This document shows positions 38,407 through 56,085 of a stretch of DNA of 64,000 nucleotides, piece after piece. Below the pieces are notes generated by a model. The model was given only the letters and a program-made list of their open reading frames with translations. It had not been told where the DNA came from and did not search any database. The DNA lies in assembly GCA_964457335.1 (NCBI GenBank), contig CAYWGD010000017.1, positions 11,069 to 75,068 on the forward strand, given 5' to 3'. Position 1 is the first letter of the stretch; each line of letters opens with the position of its first letter. The DNA is from an uncultured Enterobacteriaceae bacterium (GTDB lineage Bacteria > Myxococcota_A > UBA796 > SXON01). Position numbers and translations under genes: made by a program.

Positions 38407-39794
<1,388 letters not shown>

Positions 39795-39798
39795 CCCG

Positions 39799-40296
39799 CT
39801 ACACGACCGAGGCCCCGGCCGCCGCCACCGCCGCCAGGAAGCCGGGCACGTCGGCCGGGGTGACGTAGACGCGCCGCTCCCCACGCACCCACACGCCCTC
39901 GTAGGCCGTGGCGGCGGCGTGGTAGCGCCCCTCGGCGTCCACGAAGAGCCCGAGGCAGAACGGCGGGACCGCCGTGCCGCTCAGCTTCCACCCGGAGAGC
40001 GGGCCGGTCGACACGCGCGCGCCGCGGAGCGGGACCCGCACGGCCGCGAAGTGCGCGGGGACGACGAGCACGTCGCCCTCGACGCGGTAGCGGAGCGGGC
40101 GGCGGGCCAGGGTCGCCACCCACGCGATCAGGAGGCAGATGCCGGCCGAGGTCGCGAGGTAGAGCACGAGCGACGATCGCGGCCCCGTGGCGACCACCGG
40201 CAACAGCGCGAGGAACTGGACCGCGAACAGCCCCCCGAGCGCGGCGAACAGCGCGTAGGCCGACTTCGGGAGGGGGACGGAGGGGAACTCGGGCAT
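39799..40296 (-). CDS. Small membrane protein (two TM helices plus a soluble C-terminal domain, possibly bacterial PH-like)
   Basis: Two hydrophobic helices followed by RRPLRYRVEGDVLVVP.... The domain assignment is tentative. Confidence 0.5.
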   Translation of the reverse strand: MPEFPSVPLPKSAYALFAALGGLFAVQFLALLPVVATGPRSSLVLYLATSAGICLLIAWVATLARRPLRYRVEGDVLVVPAHFAAVRVPLRGARVSTGPLSGWKLSGTAVPPFCLGLFVDAEGRYHAAATAYEGVWVRGERRVYVTPADVPGFLAAVAAAGASVV

Positions 40297-40470
40297 CGGG
40301 GGGGTGGACCTCCCTATCCGCTTGAGCCCGGCGTCGGTTAGCTCCGCCGCATGCTGCTCGTCCTGACTGCGTCCGTGCTGGCGGTGGCGCGGTCAGCGGG
40401 CCCAGAGCCTTGCGACGCTCCGTCTTGACCCCCGGATGCCCGTTCGTGTAGAACCCGGGCTCCGGAGTAC

Positions 40471-41739
40471 ATGATGTCTATGGAAACCCTCAAGGCCAAG
40501 CTGCTGGCGATTCAGGCCCGCATCCCGATGGTGCGAGGCCGCGGTGAGGAGGCCACGAAGCAGGCGCTCGTGCTGCCGATGCTCGATGCCCTTGGCTATG
40601 ACATCTGGAACCCGCACGAGGTCTGCCCCGAGTTCGAGGCGGACTTCGCCGTGAAGAAGCAGGGCCAGAAGGAGAAGGTTGACCTTGCGATCTTGCTCAA
40701 CGGAGAGGCCCGGGCGTTCCTGGAGGTGAAGCCGGTCGACGAGCCCCTTGATGGCCACCAGGGGCAGCTCGCCCGCTACTTCAACGGCGCCCCGACGGTC
40801 TCGTTGGGGGTGCTCACCAACGGCGTCGAGTACCGCTTCTACACAGACACGGGGGAGCCCAACATGCTCGACGCGGCACCCTTCTTCGTGTTGCGCCTCG
40901 ACAGCATCGATCTGGGGCTCGACGTTCTGGCGCGGTTCCACCGCTCGGCGTTCTCGCCCAGCGCGATCCGCGAGTACGCTACGGAGCTCAACTACACCGC
41001 CCGCATGACCGCGCTGCTCCGCCAAGAGCTCGACCTCCGGAACCGAGAGCCCTCGGAGGCGCTGGTCCGGTGGGTGCTCGGATCAGAGGGCATGTACGAC
41101 GGGCGCGTCACCGCCGGCGTGGTCGAGCGCTTCCGCCCCATCGTGAAGAACGCTGTGCAGATCGTGTTGCGAGACATCGTGCGGCGCTCCGTCGCCGCGC
41201 TCGACGAAGGAGTGACCGCTCCCCAGGTCGAGAGCGCGCCGCCGGCCCTGCAGCCCGCGATCCAGGCGTCGGCGACGGCGACGCCTGCGGAGGCGGCGCC
41301 CGACGGGGGCGGCAAGGTGATCGTGACCACGGAGGCCGAGCTTGCTGCGTACGCCATCCTGCGGGAGCAATTTCAGAGCAGCGCCCTCGCGGGCGCGCGC
41401 ATCTACGACGCGACAGCGAAGAAGGACGTCGCCATCGAGATCGCGCATAAGGACACAACCGGGTACTTCGGCGTGTACTTCAACAAGCCTGCCTGGTGGT
41501 TCGCGCGCCTCCAGATGGACAGCAAGCAGCCGTGGGTGGCCTTCAACATCGACGCTGCCTCGGCGCCGTCACTGCTCCCCTCGGGCTTCTCGCTCCTCCC
41601 ACCGAGCGCGTTCGCTGACGTTCGGGTGGCCATCCGTAGCCCGGACGACCTCCACGCATTGAATCGGATCGCTTTCGCCGCCATGAGCCGCACGCTCGAG
41701 GAGCGAAACCGCGGTCGGGGAGAGGGCGACGGCGCGTAG
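40471..41739 (+). CDS. Stand-alone PD-(D/E)xK nuclease-fold protein of the type I restriction HsdR N-terminal (HSDR_N_2) type, with an uncharacterised C-terminal half
   Basis: EATKQALVLPMLDALGYD, then D-x11-E-x-K (VDLAILLNGEARAFLEVKP), then LTNGVEYRFY. There is no helicase or methylase partner. Third codon positions are visibly less G/C-biased than in flanking genes. Confidence 0.75.
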   Translation: MMSMETLKAKLLAIQARIPMVRGRGEEATKQALVLPMLDALGYDIWNPHEVCPEFEADFAVKKQGQKEKVDLAILLNGEARAFLEVKPVDEPLDGHQGQLARYFNGAPTVSLGVLTNGVEYRFYTDTGEPNMLDAAPFFVLRLDSIDLGLDVLARFHRSAFSPSAIREYATELNYTARMTALLRQELDLRNREPSEALVRWVLGSEGMYDGRVTAGVVERFRPIVKNAVQIVLRDIVRRSVAALDEGVTAPQVESAPPALQPAIQASATATPAEAAPDGGGKVIVTTEAELAAYAILREQFQSSALAGARIYDATAKKDVAIEIAHKDTTGYFGVYFNKPAWWFARLQMDSKQPWVAFNIDAASAPSLLPSGFSLLPPSAFADVRVAIRSPDDLHALNRIAFAAMSRTLEERNRGRGEGDGA

Positions 41740-41817
41740 GACTTCGATCGCGCCCTCGTCCTATGGGCTCTCGTGCACGCGGGTCGGCTCACCACCGTTG
41801 TCCGCTCGGAGGCGTGA

Positions 41818-42384
41818 ATGGTTGATCGCCGAGGATTCCTGGTTGCCGCCGCCGTCGTCGGGATTGCTGGGCCTGCGTACGGCGGGAGTGACGACGGGAG
41901 CGCGCGAGCAGGTCGCGGAGCGGGAACGCTCCTTGTCCGGGTCCTGAACGCAGCGGCCGTCGCAGCCAGCGCCAGCCCCCTCAAGGCGAAGATCGGAGCC
42001 TTCCTGGGATTCGACCTGGAGCGCGAGGTACTCAATGAGATCGTCGATACCCTCCAGGACGAGCTGCGGGCCCGAGTGGGCCTCACCATCCAGGCGCGCG
42101 TCGTCGAGTCGCGGGAGGCCGCGTGGCGCCAGTGCGACCTGCAGGCGGGGCGGTTCGTGCCGGCAGGGGCCCCTGCCGGCGGCCAGGCGCTCGAGGTCGT
42201 GATCGAGGGGCTGCCGAGCGTGTCCGACGAGGACGCCGCGCTTCGGCCCTTCTTGCGCCGGCTCCTCGCCCCGTTCCACGAGTACGTGGCCGCCAACATC
42301 ATGGCGCAGCTCGCGGAGTACGGCGGCGAGGCGGTCTTCGGGTTCGAGGGCGGAGAGCCGAGGGGCCGCCGGGCGGAGCAATAG
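41818..42384 (+). CDS. Hypothetical protein with a twin-arginine-like signal
   Basis: MVDRRGFLVAAAVVGIAGPAYG. Atypical codons (gtt, gat, cga, gga, att, agt). No domain recognised. Confidence 0.5.
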   Translation: MVDRRGFLVAAAVVGIAGPAYGGSDDGSARAGRGAGTLLVRVLNAAAVAASASPLKAKIGAFLGFDLEREVLNEIVDTLQDELRARVGLTIQARVVESREAAWRQCDLQAGRFVPAGAPAGGQALEVVIEGLPSVSDEDAALRPFLRRLLAPFHEYVAANIMAQLAEYGGEAVFGFEGGEPRGRRAEQ

Positions 42385-42426
42385 GCGACCGGGCGAAGTC
42401 GGTTAAACGACTGGGCTTTTTTCCCC

Positions 42427-42467
42427 ACACCTTCCCGACCTGTACACCTTCGTCGTGTTGGTCGCGC
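42427..42467. repeat. Direct repeat DR-A: degenerate, frameshifted copy of the pyk 3' end (att-like)
   Basis: acaccttcccgacctgtacaccttcgtcgtgttggtcgcgc compared with 45349-45390: 39 of 42 positions identical, 2 substitutions and 1 deletion. Confidence 0.75.
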
Positions 42468-42482
42468 ATCGATTCAACGTCG

Positions 42483-42514
42483 GGTATTGCGGGCGGTATC
42501 AGTGTCGGTATCCG
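42483..42514 (+). repeat. Three phased GGTAT-N-N-G repeats just inside the left islet end
   Basis: GGTATTGcgggcGGTATCAGtgtcGGTATCCG, with repeat starts at 42483, 42495 and 42507 (exact 12-bp phasing). Confidence 0.45.
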
Positions 42515-42653
42515 CGGAAGTGCTCGTTCCCCGGACCCCGGCGAGGACCACATCCTCCTCCTCGAACAGACGCGACGCGGATCAGCGCCCCCTGCTCGCA
42601 GCCGACGAGCGCGAGGGAGAATGCGAGGACCATCGGCCGCTCCGCGGGGAGGC

Positions 42654-43511
42654 TCATACGTCACCGGGTCGCGGGGATTCAGCAAGGCCGAGGGCGCCCC
42701 GGAGGATTGCGAGCCGCTCCGTCTCGGCCTTGGTGACCTTCCCGTCGGCGGCGGCCAGCGCGGCGAGCTCCCCGTACACCGCCTCTCGCGCCTCCCGCGG
42801 CGACTCGGAGATCGCTTTCGCGTAGTCCGTGGCGGAAAACACGTCGGGCGCGACGGTATCGAAGAGGCGGATCACAACGTCCCGGCTCACCATCGCGGGA
42901 ACCGTGTCGGGGAAGAAGCGCTCGACGATGCCGACGGCGGCGAGCCGCTCCTCGTCGCGCACCCGGCGATCGGCCAACGCGACGTACTTCAGCAGGTGCA
43001 CCACCACGGCGAGCTTTGCGCGCGCCTCGTCTCGCCCAGCTTGCTCCGCTGCCTCGGCCTTGAACTTGGCGGCCAGCCGCTCCCGCTCGGCCGCATCACG
43101 CTCGCGGGCCGCCTGCAGATGCTCCTCCTTCAGGCCGCCCGCTCGCTCCTGCTGTGCACCCCACTGGGCTTCCTGCGCCGCCGCAGCGCGCTGCGCCTCC
43201 GTCGCCGTCCGCTGGGTTTCCTCCGCGCGGCGCTCCGCCGCAACCTTCTCGCGCGCCGTGGCCGCGCGCTGCGCCTCAACGCGCCGTTCGGCCGCGGTCC
43301 GCTCGCGCTCGGCCAGCTCGCTCCACCCGCACGCTCGGCAGGTGAGCGGGTTGTCCTTGTAGCGGCGGGTGGGTCCGCCGCCCTTTCGCTGGTGGAGGTG
43401 GAACGCGCGCTGCTTCCCGCACTGAGGGCAGCGTACGGCCCCCGCGTTCATGCCGAGCAGGAGCACGAGCAGGAACAGAGGGACCCCCACCAGAATCCCG
43501 GACCAGTCCAC
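42654..43511 (-). CDS. Membrane-anchored Zn-ribbon, charged coiled-coil and TerB-like domain protein
   Basis: GTG start at 43511, which includes the TM helix ILVGVPLFLLVLLLG (alternative ATG at 43451). CPQCG-x19-CRACG. About 110 aa of ERR/AEA-rich helix. C-terminal TerB-like repeats (VALADRRVRDEERLAAV; AAADGKVTKAETERLAIL). Confidence 0.7.
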   Translation of the reverse strand: MDWSGILVGVPLFLLVLLLGMNAGAVRCPQCGKQRAFHLHQRKGGGPTRRYKDNPLTCRACGWSELAERERTAAERRVEAQRAATAREKVAAERRAEETQRTATEAQRAAAAQEAQWGAQQERAGGLKEEHLQAARERDAAERERLAAKFKAEAAEQAGRDEARAKLAVVVHLLKYVALADRRVRDEERLAAVGIVERFFPDTVPAMVSRDVVIRLFDTVAPDVFSATDYAKAISESPREAREAVYGELAALAAADGKVTKAETERLAILRGALGLAESPRPGDV

Positions 43512-43589
43512 GCGCGATCTCCCGTGCGGTCGTGATGCTCGCTCAACCCGCTCGCGCTGTGCAACCCCGCCCGGTGGACGGAGTCGTCC

Positions 43590-43931
43590 ATGCCGCCTCC
43601 CGCGCTCGGCCCAGTCCGCCCAACCGAGCCCGACGACGCCCCGCGGCTCGACTCCCTCGTCCGCGAGCTCGTGGACGCCTACCGCTCCCAGGCCGACGCC
43701 CAGGACCGGCGGCACCAGGAGCTCCTCGACTCGGTGCGCACGCGGGACGAGCAGTACGCAGCCCGGGAGGCGAAGCGGGACCAACAGCACAGCGCGCTCG
43801 TCGCGTCGGTGAACGGGCTGACGGTGAGTGTCGGGGCGCTCGCCGACAAGGTCCCCGGTCGGCGGGAGCTCTGGGCCGGGGCCCCGTCGGCGCGAGTCGG
43901 CGGGGCCTTCGTGCGTCGACGGCTGGCGTAG
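43590..43931 (+). CDS. Small coiled-coil hypothetical protein
   Basis: High G/C third positions in this frame. Divergent from the TerB gene with a 78-nt spacer. No domain recognised. Confidence 0.45.
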   Translation: MPPPALGPVRPTEPDDAPRLDSLVRELVDAYRSQADAQDRRHQELLDSVRTRDEQYAAREAKRDQQHSALVASVNGLTVSVGALADKVPGRRELWAGAPSARVGGAFVRRRLA

Positions 43932-43977
43932 AGTTTCGGGCGCGGACTTCATCGGAGGGGTACTTGATGCGTCTGTA

Positions 43978-44006
43978 GTAGAAAACCAGCGATAACGCGG
44001 TTTTAC
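43978..44006 (+). other. Imperfect hairpin in an unusually AT-rich spacer (possible terminator, operator or small RNA)
   Basis: GTAGAAAACCAGCG-ATAA-CGCGGTTTTAC: 11 bp with three single-nt bulges. The surrounding 130 nt (43932-44061) are the most AT-rich non-coding stretch I noticed. Confidence 0.3.
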
Positions 44007-44061
44007 GGTTGTTCGTGTAGCATCCAGCCAGCGGCGGATCTCAACCCCCCGTCGCCTTGGA

Positions 44062-44352
44062 GTGACCATGCTGAACGAGCTTCAGCCCATCCACGATTAC
44101 CTCGTCGCCTGCGGCTTCAGCGCCCGCGACCAGGGCGACCACCTGCTCGTCGTCCGCGCCGCAACGCTGGTGGACGACCACCACGCGTCCGGCCTCGTCC
44201 GCGTGGAGGTGCGCGAGGGCGCGCCGTGGGTCGAGGGCGCGACCTTGCCTGCCGAGGACGATCTCCTGAAGGTCCTCCGCGAGGCCTTTCCCGGCGTCCG
44301 GCGCGACGAGGCGCACTGGGACCTCTGCAGGGCCCCGCCGGCAGAGCGGTGA
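44062..44352 (+). CDS. Small acidic hypothetical protein
   Basis: GGAG 8 nt upstream of the ATG and high G/C third positions. Convergent with the NDT/TIR-like gene. Confidence 0.5.
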   Translation: MTMLNELQPIHDYLVACGFSARDQGDHLLVVRAATLVDDHHASGLVRVEVREGAPWVEGATLPAEDDLLKVLREAFPGVRRDEAHWDLCRAPPAER

Positions 44353-44437
44353 GGACGCCGGGCTTGCGCTTGTGGGCGACCGCCGCGGTAAGCCAACCCT
44401 CGGCCGGCAGACGCTGCCCCTCCTAGGCCACCTGCCG

Positions 44438-45157
44438 CTACTCCGCGGCTTCCTCGCCCGTCTCTCCCGTGCCGTCCTTCGGGAGCTGCTCGTACAGGGG
44501 CCCAGGAGGCGACGGTGGGGCATCGGCGGGACGGACCAGGTAGTAGCGCGTTGCCTTGCGCGCCCCCGTGGTGCGGAGGACCCCGGCCGCGGCCAGGGGG
44601 GCCACGACGAGCTGCGCCACGGGCACGCCCACCTGGAGAATCTGGGCGATCGCCTGCATCGTCAGCCCGTCGTCGGTGGTCTCCATGAACGCGCGGAACT
44701 GGCGGCGGAGCTCGTCGAGGTGCTGCTCGATCGAGACGACCTGCGTTCGGCGCGGGTACCGCTGCTCGATGAGCGTGGCGAGCTTGCGGCCGAGCTCGTC
44801 GTAGGAGGCGTACTCGATGCGGTCCAGGCCCCGGAGGTCGGAGGGAACCTCCTTGATCTCCGTCTTCTCGGGGTTCAGGCAGATGTACCAGCTGTCGCTG
44901 TGGGCCATGGCGAAGCCCAGTTCCAGCGTCACGTTGGGGTTCCAGCCGGAGATGTCGAACAGCGAGAAGTCAGACGACCTGATGTAGCTGATGATCTTCT
45001 GCATGATGTGCATGTTCGTGATCTTCTCGTCGGCGAAGATGAACCGCACGTCGTACTGCTTCTCGAGGTCACTGAAGACCCGCCTGTAGTCGGCTTTCGC
45101 GTAGGTCTTGTAGGAGTAGGCAACGAAGACCTGCTTCTTGAGCGGCATGACAGACAT
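44438..45157 (-). CDS. Nucleoside 2-deoxyribosyltransferase/TIR-like (flavodoxin-fold) domain fused to a C-terminal winged-helix domain
   Basis: Start at M55 of ORF 44438..45319 (alternative M58 at 45148). Strand 1 is KQVFVAYSY. The motif SDFSLFDISGWNPNVTLELGFAMAHSDSWYICL matches the aD-x-v-x-a-D-x-s-G...N/D-x-G/N-T/V-x-x-E-I/L-G-Y/F-A signature of the NDT-like fold. The C-terminus (LTMQAIAQILQVGVPVAQLVVAPLAAAGVLRTTGARKATRYYL) looks like a winged helix. Confidence 0.7.
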   Translation of the reverse strand: MSVMPLKKQVFVAYSYKTYAKADYRRVFSDLEKQYDVRFIFADEKITNMHIMQKIISYIRSSDFSLFDISGWNPNVTLELGFAMAHSDSWYICLNPEKTEIKEVPSDLRGLDRIEYASYDELGRKLATLIEQRYPRRTQVVSIEQHLDELRRQFRAFMETTDDGLTMQAIAQILQVGVPVAQLVVAPLAAAGVLRTTGARKATRYYLVRPADAPPSPPGPLYEQLPKDGTGETGEEAAE

Positions 45158-45243
45158 GCGCCGTTGATTACGCGACGCGAGCGCCCGGAGCAAGCGGGTG
45201 CTCGGCCGCAGATCCCCGGGCGCGCTCCCCGTGCCAGCCCGCC

Positions 45244-45333
45244 CCGGTATCAGAAGTATCAGAAGCGCCCGGAAACCCCCTGATACCGGCGGGTACCAGC
45301 GCAGGACCGGATCGTTCACGATCCGCTGATAAG
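45244..45333. promoter_or_regulatory. Repeat cluster inside the right islet end and upstream of the NDT/TIR-like gene
   Basis: A perfect 10-bp inverted repeat CCGGTATCAG (45244-45253) / CTGATACCGG (45280-45289). A tandem GTATCAGAA x2 (45247, 45256). A palindrome GGATCGttcaCGATCC (45309-45324). CTGATAAG at 45326-45333. Confidence 0.45.
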
Positions 45334-45346
45334 CGTGGTTTTCGGC

Positions 45347-46801
45347 CTACACCTTCCCCACCGTGTACACCTTCATCGTGTTGGTCGCGCCCCGCATCGG
45401 CGTGTTCCCCGCGAGCGCGACGACCTCCTGCCCGCGCGAGATGAGCCCGCGGTCGAGGAGGATGGACTCGCCGAGGGCGATGAGCTCGTCGGTGGACGCC
45501 ACGGTGGGCGCGCGGACGGGCGTCACGCCCCACGCGAGCGCGAGGCGGTCGTAGGTGGTCTCGTTCGGCGTGAGCGCGAAGATCGGGCCCGGGGGGCGCG
45601 ACTTCGAGGCGTAGAGCGCGGTGGCGCCCGACCAGGTGAAGACCACGAGCGGCCGCGGGATCTCGCGGACCGCGTAGCAGGCGGAGCGCACCACGGTGTG
45701 CGACGGGCCCGCGAGCACGGAGACCTCCTCGAACGGCTGGCGCATCCAGCGGCTCGACTCGACCTCGCGCGCGATGCGGTCCATCGTCTCGACCGCCTTG
45801 ATGGGGTACCGCCCGCTCGCCGTCTCGCCGGAGAGCATGATGGCGTCGGTGCCGTCGACGATCGCGTTGGCCACGTCGGTGGCCTCGGCGCGCGTGGGGC
45901 GGGGGCTCCGCTCCATGGAGTCAAGCATCTGCGTGGCCGTGATGACGAGCACGCCCGCCCGGTTGGCCGCCGCGATGAGCTCCTTCTGGATGACGGGGAC
46001 GCGCTCCAGGCTCATCTCCACGCCCAGGTCTCCGCGCGCGACCATGATCCCCTCGACCACGCCGAGGATCTCCTGGATGTTCGCGACGGCCTGCGGCATC
46101 TCGATCTTCGCGATGATGGGCAGGTCGGGGACCTCGAGCCGGCGCAGGTGCTCCCGAAGCGTGAGCACGTCGGTGGCCTCGCGCACGAACGAGAGCGCGA
46201 CGTAGTCCACGCCGGCGCGCACCCCGACCTCGAGGTCCGCGATGTCCTGCTCGGTGAGGCAGGGCGCGCTGACGTTCACGCCCGGGAAGTTCATGCCCTT
46301 GTGGTTGCCGAGCGGGCCGCCGTCCTCGATGCGGATGTCGACCTCGGCGGGCGAGACGCTCCGGCGCACCTCGGTCACGTGGCCGGAGAGCGCGCCGTCG
46401 GCGAACAGCACGAGGTCGCCGGCCGTCACGTCGCCGGCCATGCCCGTGTAGGTGGTGCCGATGCGGTTGCCCGCCTGGACGTAGTCCTCGTCCATCACGA
46501 CGGTGAGGATGTCGCCCGTCTTGAGCTGGAGCGGCGTGGGGATGGTCCCCGTGCGGATCTTGGGGCCCTGGAGGTCGAGGAGGATGCCGGCCGGGCGGTC
46601 GAGGCGGGTGGCGCTGCGGCGCACGCGCGCGACGAACTCGCGGATGGCCTCCGCGGTGGCGTGCGAGCAGTTGATGCGGAACACGTCCACCCCCGCGCCC
46701 AGGAGCGCGAGGATCTGGTCGGGTTCCCGCGAGGCGGGGCCGAGCGTGGCGACGATCTTGGTGCGGCGGGGGGGCATGCGTCCTCGTACGTTCCGGGTCA
46801 C
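45347..46801 (-). CDS. pyk: Pyruvate kinase
   Basis: RRTKIVATLGPAS, FRINCSH, IIAKIE, MVARGDLGVE and ATQMLDSM motifs. The more canonical start is M9 at 46777 (MPPRRTKIV). Confidence 0.95.
   Translation of the reverse strand: MTRNVRGRMPPRRTKIVATLGPASREPDQILALLGAGVDVFRINCSHATAEAIREFVARVRRSATRLDRPAGILLDLQGPKIRTGTIPTPLQLKTGDILTVVMDEDYVQAGNRIGTTYTGMAGDVTAGDLVLFADGALSGHVTEVRRSVSPAEVDIRIEDGGPLGNHKGMNFPGVNVSAPCLTEQDIADLEVGVRAGVDYVALSFVREATDVLTLREHLRRLEVPDLPIIAKIEMPQAVANIQEILGVVEGIMVARGDLGVEMSLERVPVIQKELIAAANRAGVLVITATQMLDSMERSPRPTRAEATDVANAIVDGTDAIMLSGETASGRYPIKAVETMDRIAREVESSRWMRQPFEEVSVLAGPSHTVVRSACYAVREIPRPLVVFTWSGATALYASKSRPPGPIFALTPNETTYDRLALAWGVTPVRAPTVASTDELIALGESILLDRGLISRGQEVVALAGNTPMRGATNTMKVYTVGKV
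45349..45390. repeat. Direct repeat DR-B: the functional 3' end of pyk (att-like)
   Basis: acaccttccccaccgtgtacaccttcatcgtgttggtcgcgc. Its antisense encodes ...ATNTMKVYTVGKV-stop. Confidence 0.75.
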
Positions 46802-55984: not shown

Positions 55985-56085
55985 GGCAGGCCGTGCCGCG
56001 CTGGTGCCGGCCCCGGTCTTCAAAACCGGTCGGGGCGCCTCGAGAGGGGCCGCCCGGTGGGTTCGATTCCCATGGCCTGCCGCCA
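55985..56085 (+). tRNA. selC: tRNA-Sec (anticodon UCA)
   Basis: 8-bp acceptor stem GGCAGGCC/GGCCTGCC, discriminator G and an encoded CCA. Anticodon stem CCGGT/ACCGG with loop CT-TCA-AA. About 27-nt variable arm. 5-bp T stem GTGGG/CCCAT with loop TTCGATT. This is the 8/5 geometry typical of bacterial tRNA-Sec. Confidence 0.8.

Follow-up and report, generated by a model that had tools for sequence, protein, structure and literature searches.

A short islet at positions 42481-45338 of the 64,000-nucleotide stretch of contig CAYWGD010000017.1 analysed here (the window) holds four genes, A to D, and a small lipobox open reading frame (ORF), next to the 3' end of a pyruvate kinase gene. On balance the evidence favours reading the islet as a mosaic, made up of two or more unrelated, independently mobile accessory units and two orphan ORFs, rather than as one co-evolved system. 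The first unit would be gene A with the lipobox ORF that overlaps its stop codon, and the second gene D, encoding a self-contained protein; both are probably defence-related. The evidence that carries this reading is that relatives of D move as one-gene integron cassettes, that relatives of A commonly have a partner gene of their own, and that the two families were never found together at other loci. An earlier, sequence-only reading had proposed that the four genes form one module, a TerB sensor being joined to a nucleoside deoxyribosyltransferase (NDT)/TIR effector with the small ORFs as regulators, and had named beforehand a survey of co-occurrence among the tests that could sink it. That survey, covering 41 D loci and seven other A loci, came out against the module.

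The genes concerned are as follows.

Gene A, 42654..43511, minus strand: membrane anchor (predicted N-out/C-in), CPxC...CxxC zinc ribbon, Ala/Glu/Arg coiled-coil linker, TerB domain
Lipobox ORF, 42499..42657, minus strand: 52 amino acids (aa), lipoprotein signal MSLPAERPMVLAFSLALVG/C, lipobox LVGC; its start overlaps the TGA stop of A as ATGA
Gene B, 43590..43931, plus strand: 113 aa, basic (isoelectric point, pI, 9.5), helical N-terminal half, weakly hydrophobic residues 67-85
Gene C, 44062..44352, plus strand: 96 aa, mildly acidic (pI 5.0); independent call starts at 44068
Gene D, 44438..45157, minus strand: TIR/NDT-fold domain and C-terminal winged helix; independent call starts at 45148

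The base composition of the window is ~73-75% G+C, and spurious long ORFs are therefore frequent, so that candidate genes were tested by their codon-position G+C. The third-position values (GC3) of A (0.86), B (0.91), C (0.92) and D (0.93) are of coding type, and overlapping alternative ORFs lack such a pattern. An independent gene caller found the same four genes on the identical public contig, with products of 285 (A), 113 (B), 94 (C) and 236 (D) aa. The four ORFs, as well as the acidic character of C, thus stand as the sequence-only reading gave them; the lipobox ORF, the direct repeat around the islet and the GGTATCAG motifs at its ends, described below, are additional to it. Genes A to D fall into three transcription units, whose orientations alternate.

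Gene D is a self-sufficient mobile unit

Homologues of D (n = 529) are commonly ~60% identical to it; for the relatives at the 41 loci that follow, identity ranges from 36 to 75%. Among 185,579 genomes, one per species, we found 41 D loci, spread over the Myxococcota, Gemmatimonadota, Pseudomonadota, Verrucomicrobiota, Acidobacteriota, Spirochaetota, Chloroflexota, Bacillota, Planctomycetota and Actinomycetota, with one further afield in a Thermoplasmata assembly that is apparently archaeal. At none of the 41 did a relative of A, B or C, or of the upstream genes E and F (see the last section), lie within 8 kb, and clustering of all flanking ORFs revealed no neighbour conserved across them. The immediate neighbours, defined as the two nearest ORFs on each side, amounted to 129 proteins; these matched 129 different Pfam families, and TerB was found in 0 of the 129. 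A minority are of defence type (ThsB, TIR-TM, PD-Lambda-3, caspase) or are integrases. In comparisons with plasmids D gave only remote NDT-like matches, with no retron nearby.

The only conserved DNA flanking the D relatives consists of integron attC sites. A conserved non-coding RNA beside D had been entertained, and was rejected when the conserved DNA proved to be attC. The clearest case is locus L016, where a 59-nt attC on both sides of the D relative delimits a ~750-nt cassette holding D alone; the two sites fold as hairpins with z = -4.8 and z = -5.3. An attC follows immediately after the D stop codon in L004, L012 and L016, and attC sites of a single orientation form arrays at L014 6090-15600 and L016 5670-9450 (Cognatiluteimonas sedimenti and Chiayiivirga flava), marking these as chromosomal integron cassette arrays. 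The D relatives in L004, L012, L014 and L016 are, by these features, integron gene cassettes. No attC-like site was found beside the D of the window itself. Taken together, the lack of any conserved neighbour and the attC-bounded cassettes indicate that D is sufficient in itself and mobile as a single gene.

Integrons are documented as a store of compact genes for phage defence, carried in cassettes termed BRiCs, and homologues of these occur outside integrons as well, without attC (10.1101/2024.07.02.601719). The relatives of D likewise occur as one-gene cassettes with attC in cassette arrays; the copy in the window, with no attC-like site found beside it, differs in this. The match of the distribution of D to a documented pattern supports a defence-type reading of D. 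The same paper has no mention of TIR, deoxyribosyltransferase or winged.

Gene A belongs to a membrane-anchored TerB family with its own partner gene

Residues 170-278 of A match Pfam TerB (PF05099) with 32.8 bits against a cut-off of 24.4 (E = 9.6e-8), and TerB is also precomputed for the identical public protein. The hydrophobic helix comprises residues 3-21, the most hydrophobic 19-residue window of the protein, and is followed by the four cysteines C28, C31, C58 and C61 (CPQC...CRAC), which are invariant or nearly so across the family alignment. A 99-residue linker, mostly Ala, Glu and Arg, then separates the zinc ribbon from TerB. The order of N-terminal transmembrane helix, zinc ribbon, charged linker and TerB that had been read from the sequence is thus borne out.

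The family is rare and was only found by exhaustive HMMER search of 1.84 billion representatives, which gave 62 cluster representatives at E<=0.001 and 14 at E<=1e-10; word-indexed searches, made with A alone or with a linker-trimmed alignment, were swamped by low-complexity candidates. All 16 relatives aligned with A share its succession of anchor, ribbon, linker and TerB domain. Of the 17 sequences in this alignment, A included, 16 have no Lys or Arg ahead of the helix and three to eight in the 25 residues that follow it. Under the positive-inside rule these helix-flanking charges put both the zinc ribbon and the TerB domain at the inner membrane's cytoplasmic side, and an N-out/C-in topology is therefore predicted.

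Besides the window, seven A-family loci could be read (L047, L048, L050, L051, L052, L055 and L056), most of them on short contigs. None contains a relative of B, C or D. In five (L048, L050, L051, L052 and L055) the A relative is directly followed by a lipoprotein-like gene, which begins at most 60 nt away or overlaps, and whose product has a short hydrophobic N-terminus with a cysteine at its end; three of these products carry a canonical lipobox (LAGC, LVGC, LFGC) and the other two a non-canonical one (AMSC). It was this recurrent partner that led us to search the corresponding position in the window and so to recognise the lipobox ORF there.

In two loci the A relatives lie among phage structural genes, on the opposite strand to them. 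In L048 Baseplate_J and GP46 genes stand beside the pair of A relative and lipoprotein-like gene, and in L050 the pair lies between the portal gene and the genes for the large and small terminase subunits. A divergent XRE-type pair adjoins the A relative of L052. A narrower alignment of the A family found one locus in metagenomes and, like A alone, gave no match in the viral contigs searched; nor was there any match when A, B, C and D were compared by tblastn with 50,697 phage records.

Small inner-membrane proteins and lipoproteins, such as HK97 gp15 and T5 Llp, serve as phage morons for superinfection exclusion. The A relatives and their lipoprotein-like genes have a comparable setting, forming a two-gene unit on the opposite strand between phage structural genes. 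They differ in that A has no sequence relationship to any named exclusion protein, so that the likeness is one of context. We also considered that A and the lipobox ORF might be a two-component spanin, which would be N-in/C-out with a periplasmic coiled coil. This was rejected, as 16 of the 17 family members are predicted to be N-out/C-in; the four-cysteine zinc ribbon likewise fits the cytoplasm rather than a spanin topology.

In L051 (973-5590) and L055 (1369-4053) large proteins of 601-935 aa adjoin the A relatives. The directly adjacent ones (601 aa in L051, 673 aa in L055) look alike near their N-termini when compared by eye, unaligned. The 601-, 673- and 935-aa proteins have no match in Pfam or PHROGs; they may be uncharacterised phage tail proteins, and for want of a PHROG match these two loci were not counted as phage loci.

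Shango (SngA), Bunzi (BnzA) and Dionysus (DinB) are defence systems with a TerB component, the role of which is still described as unclear; the domain was originally known from resistance to tellurite and stress, and the Dionysus preprint proposes that TerB membrane association serves membrane surveillance (10.1101/2025.09.30.679545). Gene A shares with these systems the TerB domain and the association with the membrane. It matches none of the PADLOC models of SngA, BnzA or DinB, however, and is accompanied by no ATPase, helicase, MAEBL protein or pore-forming partner; unlike them, it has a zinc ribbon, a membrane anchor of its own and a lipoprotein-like partner gene. For Shango (SngA-SngB-SngC) the islet and its flanks contain no ATPase or helicase domain, and for Dionysus (DinA-DinB-DinC) the neighbouring ORFs include no MAEBL/transmembrane protein and no four-helix transmembrane pore-forming toxin.

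The islet was apparently acquired as one piece

At each boundary of the islet (42417-42480 and 45339-45403) stands a copy of the 3' end of pyruvate kinase, the two forming a 64-65-nt direct repeat with 80% identity over 65 nt and a BLAST E-value of 1.3e-10 within the window. Exactly five ORFs lie between the repeats, namely the lipobox ORF, A, B, C and D. Since the repeats enclose precisely these genes, the islet is real and apparently came in whole, next to the pyruvate kinase 3' end. The features at its ends are listed here.

Left direct repeat, 42417..42480, minus strand: decayed copy of the pyruvate kinase 3' end; reverse complement ...ATNTTKVYRSGRCGEK
Left-end motif pair, 42494..42514, plus strand: CGGTATCAG / CGGTATCCG
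Inverted repeat, 45244..45289, no strand: CCGGTATCAG-N26-CTGATACCGG with tandem GTATCAGAA within, between the pyruvate kinase stop and the D start
Palindrome, 45309..45326, no strand: CGGATCGTtcACGATCCG, immediately downstream of the pyruvate kinase stop codon
Right direct repeat, 45339..45403, minus strand: functional pyruvate kinase 3' end (...ATNTMKVYTVGKV, then stop); stop codon from 45347

The mobile look ascribed to the islet by the sequence-only reading is accordingly given a concrete basis. The G+C content is also lower inside the islet: at ~40.5-45.5 kb it is 0.64-0.72, with the exception of one bin of 0.74 at 43.0-43.5 kb, as against 0.72-0.77 upstream and 0.71-0.81 downstream. The motif GGTATCAG occurs three times in the 64 kb, where 0.4 copies would be expected, and all three copies are at the islet ends. 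The right-hand copies form a predicted long hairpin at 45244-45289 (z = -2.0), and this inverted repeat may be a terminator, an operator or a recombination site. The idea that GGTATCAG is the operator for the winged helix of D found no support, in that its GTATC/GATAC core is not conserved upstream of D relatives. An Rfam scan of 39500-46000 gave no match.

Of the features of a site-specific integrative element the islet has the direct repeats, the 3' end of the target being present at each junction; an integrase or recombinase of its own was not found, domain searches of the enclosed ORFs returning no such domain. As part of the mosaic reading, and with the same confidence, we take 42481-45338 to be an insertion of cargo alone next to the pyruvate kinase 3' end, which either moved in trans or is the residue of a larger element.

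A more extreme version of the latter is that the whole islet is a decayed remnant of, for example, a prophage inserted at this site, whose surviving genes have no current role. Phage-borne relatives of A would suit this, as would repeats that are only 80% identical with no integrase between them, and a lipobox ORF that looks eroded (GC3 0.74) and ends inside the end motif. Yet A and D retain all the invariant residues of their families, and A, B, C and D have all kept a strong coding GC3 of 0.86-0.93. A remnant origin is, besides, compatible with current function. We therefore regard functionless debris as very improbable.

One system or several

The single insertion is also an argument for a single system. 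In such a system, specific to this lineage, the membrane TerB protein would sense perturbation of the envelope and activate the NDT/TIR enzyme, with B and C as regulators or antitoxins. That TerB domains (Shango, Bunzi, Dionysus) and NDT-like domains (type II retrons) are both known from defence, as the sequence-only reading had noted for Shango and for some retrons, and that no known system matches the set, can be added to the fact that the genes lie within one repeat-bounded 2.9-kb insertion. What decides against it is the behaviour of the genes elsewhere: A and D relatives do not co-occur at the 41 D loci or the seven A loci, D is mobile as a one-gene cassette, and A has a recurrent partner of its own. 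The three separate transcription units of alternating orientation point the same way. We consider a single system quite unlikely, and the four-gene module as originally put forward is not supported.

Several observations nevertheless weigh against the mosaic of defence-related units. The four genes appear to have been acquired in a single 2.9-kb event, as one system would be also, and any linkage of B and C to A or D is beyond the reach of comparison because B and C have no relatives. The neighbourhood evidence for the A family comes from seven other loci, mostly short contigs, and in two of these (L047 and L056) the next gene is a different one, without lipoprotein-like character. The lipobox ORF may itself be decayed or truncated, possibly a remnant; its GC3 is only 0.74 and it ends within the left-end motif of the islet, so that it is possibly eroded. 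As regards D, about one-tenth of the 129 neighbours match a PADLOC model at E<=1e-5, other relatives have housekeeping neighbours (one in a Limisphaerales genome is flanked by genes for citrate synthase and for an ATP-grasp/CoA-ligase), and identity of 36-75% between phyla exceeds what is usual in defence genes.

Gene D combines a TIR/NDT fold with a winged helix

The D family has very well conserved motifs, namely FADE (FADEKITNMHI), GWNPNVTLELG, which includes Glu79, FDISGWNPNVTLELG and VPSDLRGLDRI. Against the Pfam CAP12/Pycsar TIR family (PF10137) D scores 24.4 bits, just below the cut-off of 24.7, and some homologues carry a precomputed PF10137 match. An AlphaFold model built on 25 homologues (mean pLDDT 84) has an alpha/beta domain of five strands and, after it, three helices with a beta hairpin that make up the winged helix. 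Foldseek against the PDB returned DNPH1/Rcl first (TM-score 0.72 to the target, probability 1.0, root-mean-square deviation ~3.3 Å, identity 14-17%), and SPARTA TIR domains next; against viral structures there were matches to NDT, to CMP/hydroxymethyl-CMP hydrolase and to winged helices. The model and these matches agree with the NDT/TIR-like fold and winged helix read earlier from the sequence. In one D relative (P0049, loci L003 and L044), which lies in an integron cassette, Gly replaces the near-invariant Glu79 (VTLGLG), and this copy may lack activity.

The best match of D by fold is DNPH1/Rcl, a 2'-deoxynucleoside 5'-phosphate N-hydrolase from the NDT superfamily. In a weak hhalign alignment (E = 0.14) the ELG motif of D tentatively aligns with the catalytic motif of DNPH1, Glu79 falling opposite Glu104. 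Identity is nonetheless as low as the Foldseek values given above, and DNPH1 has no DNA-binding domain.

The nearest sequence family of D is that of the CBASS/Pycsar TIR effectors (PF10137), which with the SPARTA TIR are also among its top structural matches, and the glutamate of D is conserved in the equivalent helix. Here the differences lie in the company kept: D has no cyclase, SAVED, Argonaute or APAZ partner, its partner domain being a winged helix. No nucleotide cyclase was found in the flanks of the window or among the listed families of D neighbours. For Thoeris, D gave no ThsB match at E<=1, and no SIR2, Macro or SLOG gene is present.

In architecture D is closest to the effectors of type II retrons, in which an NDT-like domain carries a winged helix at its C-terminus (PMC7736814). 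By the AlphaFold model and Foldseek it shares this combination with the effectors of Retron-Sen2 and Retron-Eco1/Ec86. The likeness does not extend to sequence, since no retron model is among the PADLOC matches of D and no retron effector appeared in the PDB profile search. Neither the window genes nor the surroundings of D relatives, judged by the top Pfam families of the 129 neighbours, include a reverse transcriptase or msr/msd RNA, and the sole PADLOC match of reverse-transcriptase type among the neighbours (RTasPolA) is most likely a DNA polymerase A gene. D, by contrast with a retron effector, is solitary or an integron cassette.

With the 2023 PADLOC models B and C had no match, A had only a chance match to LmuB (E = 0.28), and the matches of D were weak ones to TIR effectors (E = 5.5e-5). 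The expectation of the sequence-only reading that no described system would fit has thus held, as has its statement that a helicase, ATPase, reverse transcriptase or cyclase partner is missing, none being found by domain searches of the islet or its flanks.

The resemblance to DNPH1/Rcl raises the question of whether these genes have anything to do with defence. D could be a DNPH1-like nucleotide sanitising or salvage enzyme, or a ligand-sensing transcription factor, some of its relatives being annotated as ArsR-type regulators, and A a TerB/DjlA-type envelope or metal stress protein, in keeping with the first description of TerB; both would simply have moved horizontally. The strong conservation of D across phyla favours this, and some relatives lie within metabolic gene clusters, the copy in the window itself adjoining pyruvate kinase. 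Against an ordinary metabolic role, D is very rare and patchy, occurring in 41 of 185,579 species genomes; it travels as an integron cassette and has integrases, TIR and other defence-type genes nearby in a minority of loci. Its nearest sequence families, moreover, are defence TIR effectors, and relatives of A are found in phage genomes. We think a non-defence role of these genes unlikely.

Genes B and C are orphans

Both have the look of real genes, specific to this lineage and with no role that can be assigned. No homologue of either was found in the fetched A and D loci, the phage records, Pfam, NCBIfam, PHROGs or the PDB, and C had no relatives in metagenome contigs; the 90% identity cluster of each has one member. 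The single-sequence AlphaFold model of C was unusable (pLDDT 45). A HicA-like fold for C, suggested by an alpha-beta-beta-beta-alpha pattern seen by eye, was dropped, no such Pfam match being obtained at E<=1.

Proposed roles of the two units

The functional readings that follow we infer from the architecture, distribution and mobility described above. The phage-insert context and the membrane topology suggest that the unit of A and the lipobox ORF acts at the cell envelope, most likely in superinfection exclusion of the prophage type or in phage defence at the level of the membrane. In the second unit, the winged helix of D would bind nucleic acid and would gate an N-glycosidase that destroys NAD+ or a nucleotide by way of Glu79. 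D would in this respect resemble a type II retron effector working without its retron.

More tentatively, D could represent an undescribed family of single-protein immune sensor-effectors, in which the winged helix activates the N-glycosidase on invading nucleic acid, and which, as a one-gene integron cassette, has spread among bacterial phyla and apparently also into an archaeon; A and its lipoprotein-like partner could at the same time be a new phage-borne TerB envelope exclusion pair. As an account of both units together this is possible rather than probable.

With the four-gene system unsupported, there is no case for pursuing it as a unit. What remains are two small candidates of modest novelty. 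One is a TIR/NDT and winged-helix protein of ~220 aa, unusually well conserved across phyla, found as a single-gene integron cassette and absent from the 2023 PADLOC models; if it does defend against phages, then the architecture of retron effectors can work without a retron. The other is a membrane-anchored TerB protein with a lipoprotein-like gene, seen twice in phage genomes, which could give a simple handle on the role of TerB at the membrane, a role still called unclear in a 2025 preprint (10.1101/2025.09.30.679545).

Other observations at the D loci and in the window

In the Limisphaerales locus L046 (6857-10826) the D relative lies between the citrate synthase and ATP-grasp/CoA-ligase genes with gaps of 7 and 4 nt, an operon-like arrangement. 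In L045 (13119-14009, Leptospira langatensis) a gene of 296 aa, ~4.4 kb downstream of the D relative, weakly resembles the TIR/NDT domain of D (28% over 75 aa, E = 0.018); DUF4145 and ParE-toxin genes are close by, and the region looks like a variable or defence-type islet.

The only tRNA gene in the window, for tRNA-Sec (55985-56085, plus strand), does not adjoin the islet. Upstream of the islet, gene F (41818-42384, plus strand; 188 aa) has no family match beyond weak hits for a twin-arginine signal, which stay under the cut-off in Pfam (E = 0.12) as in NCBIfam (E = 0.021). Its terminator (42397-42412) adjoins the decayed pyruvate kinase 3' remnant, and this is the pre-insertion junction. 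Gene E (40471-41739, plus strand; 422 aa) lies just outside the repeat-bounded islet and shares its stretch of low G+C. It matches the phage endonuclease family phrog_4225 over its full length (E = 4.7e-75), carries in addition a restriction-type nuclease domain, HSDR_N (Pfam E = 1.2e-12), and may be older phage-derived cargo in the neighbourhood.

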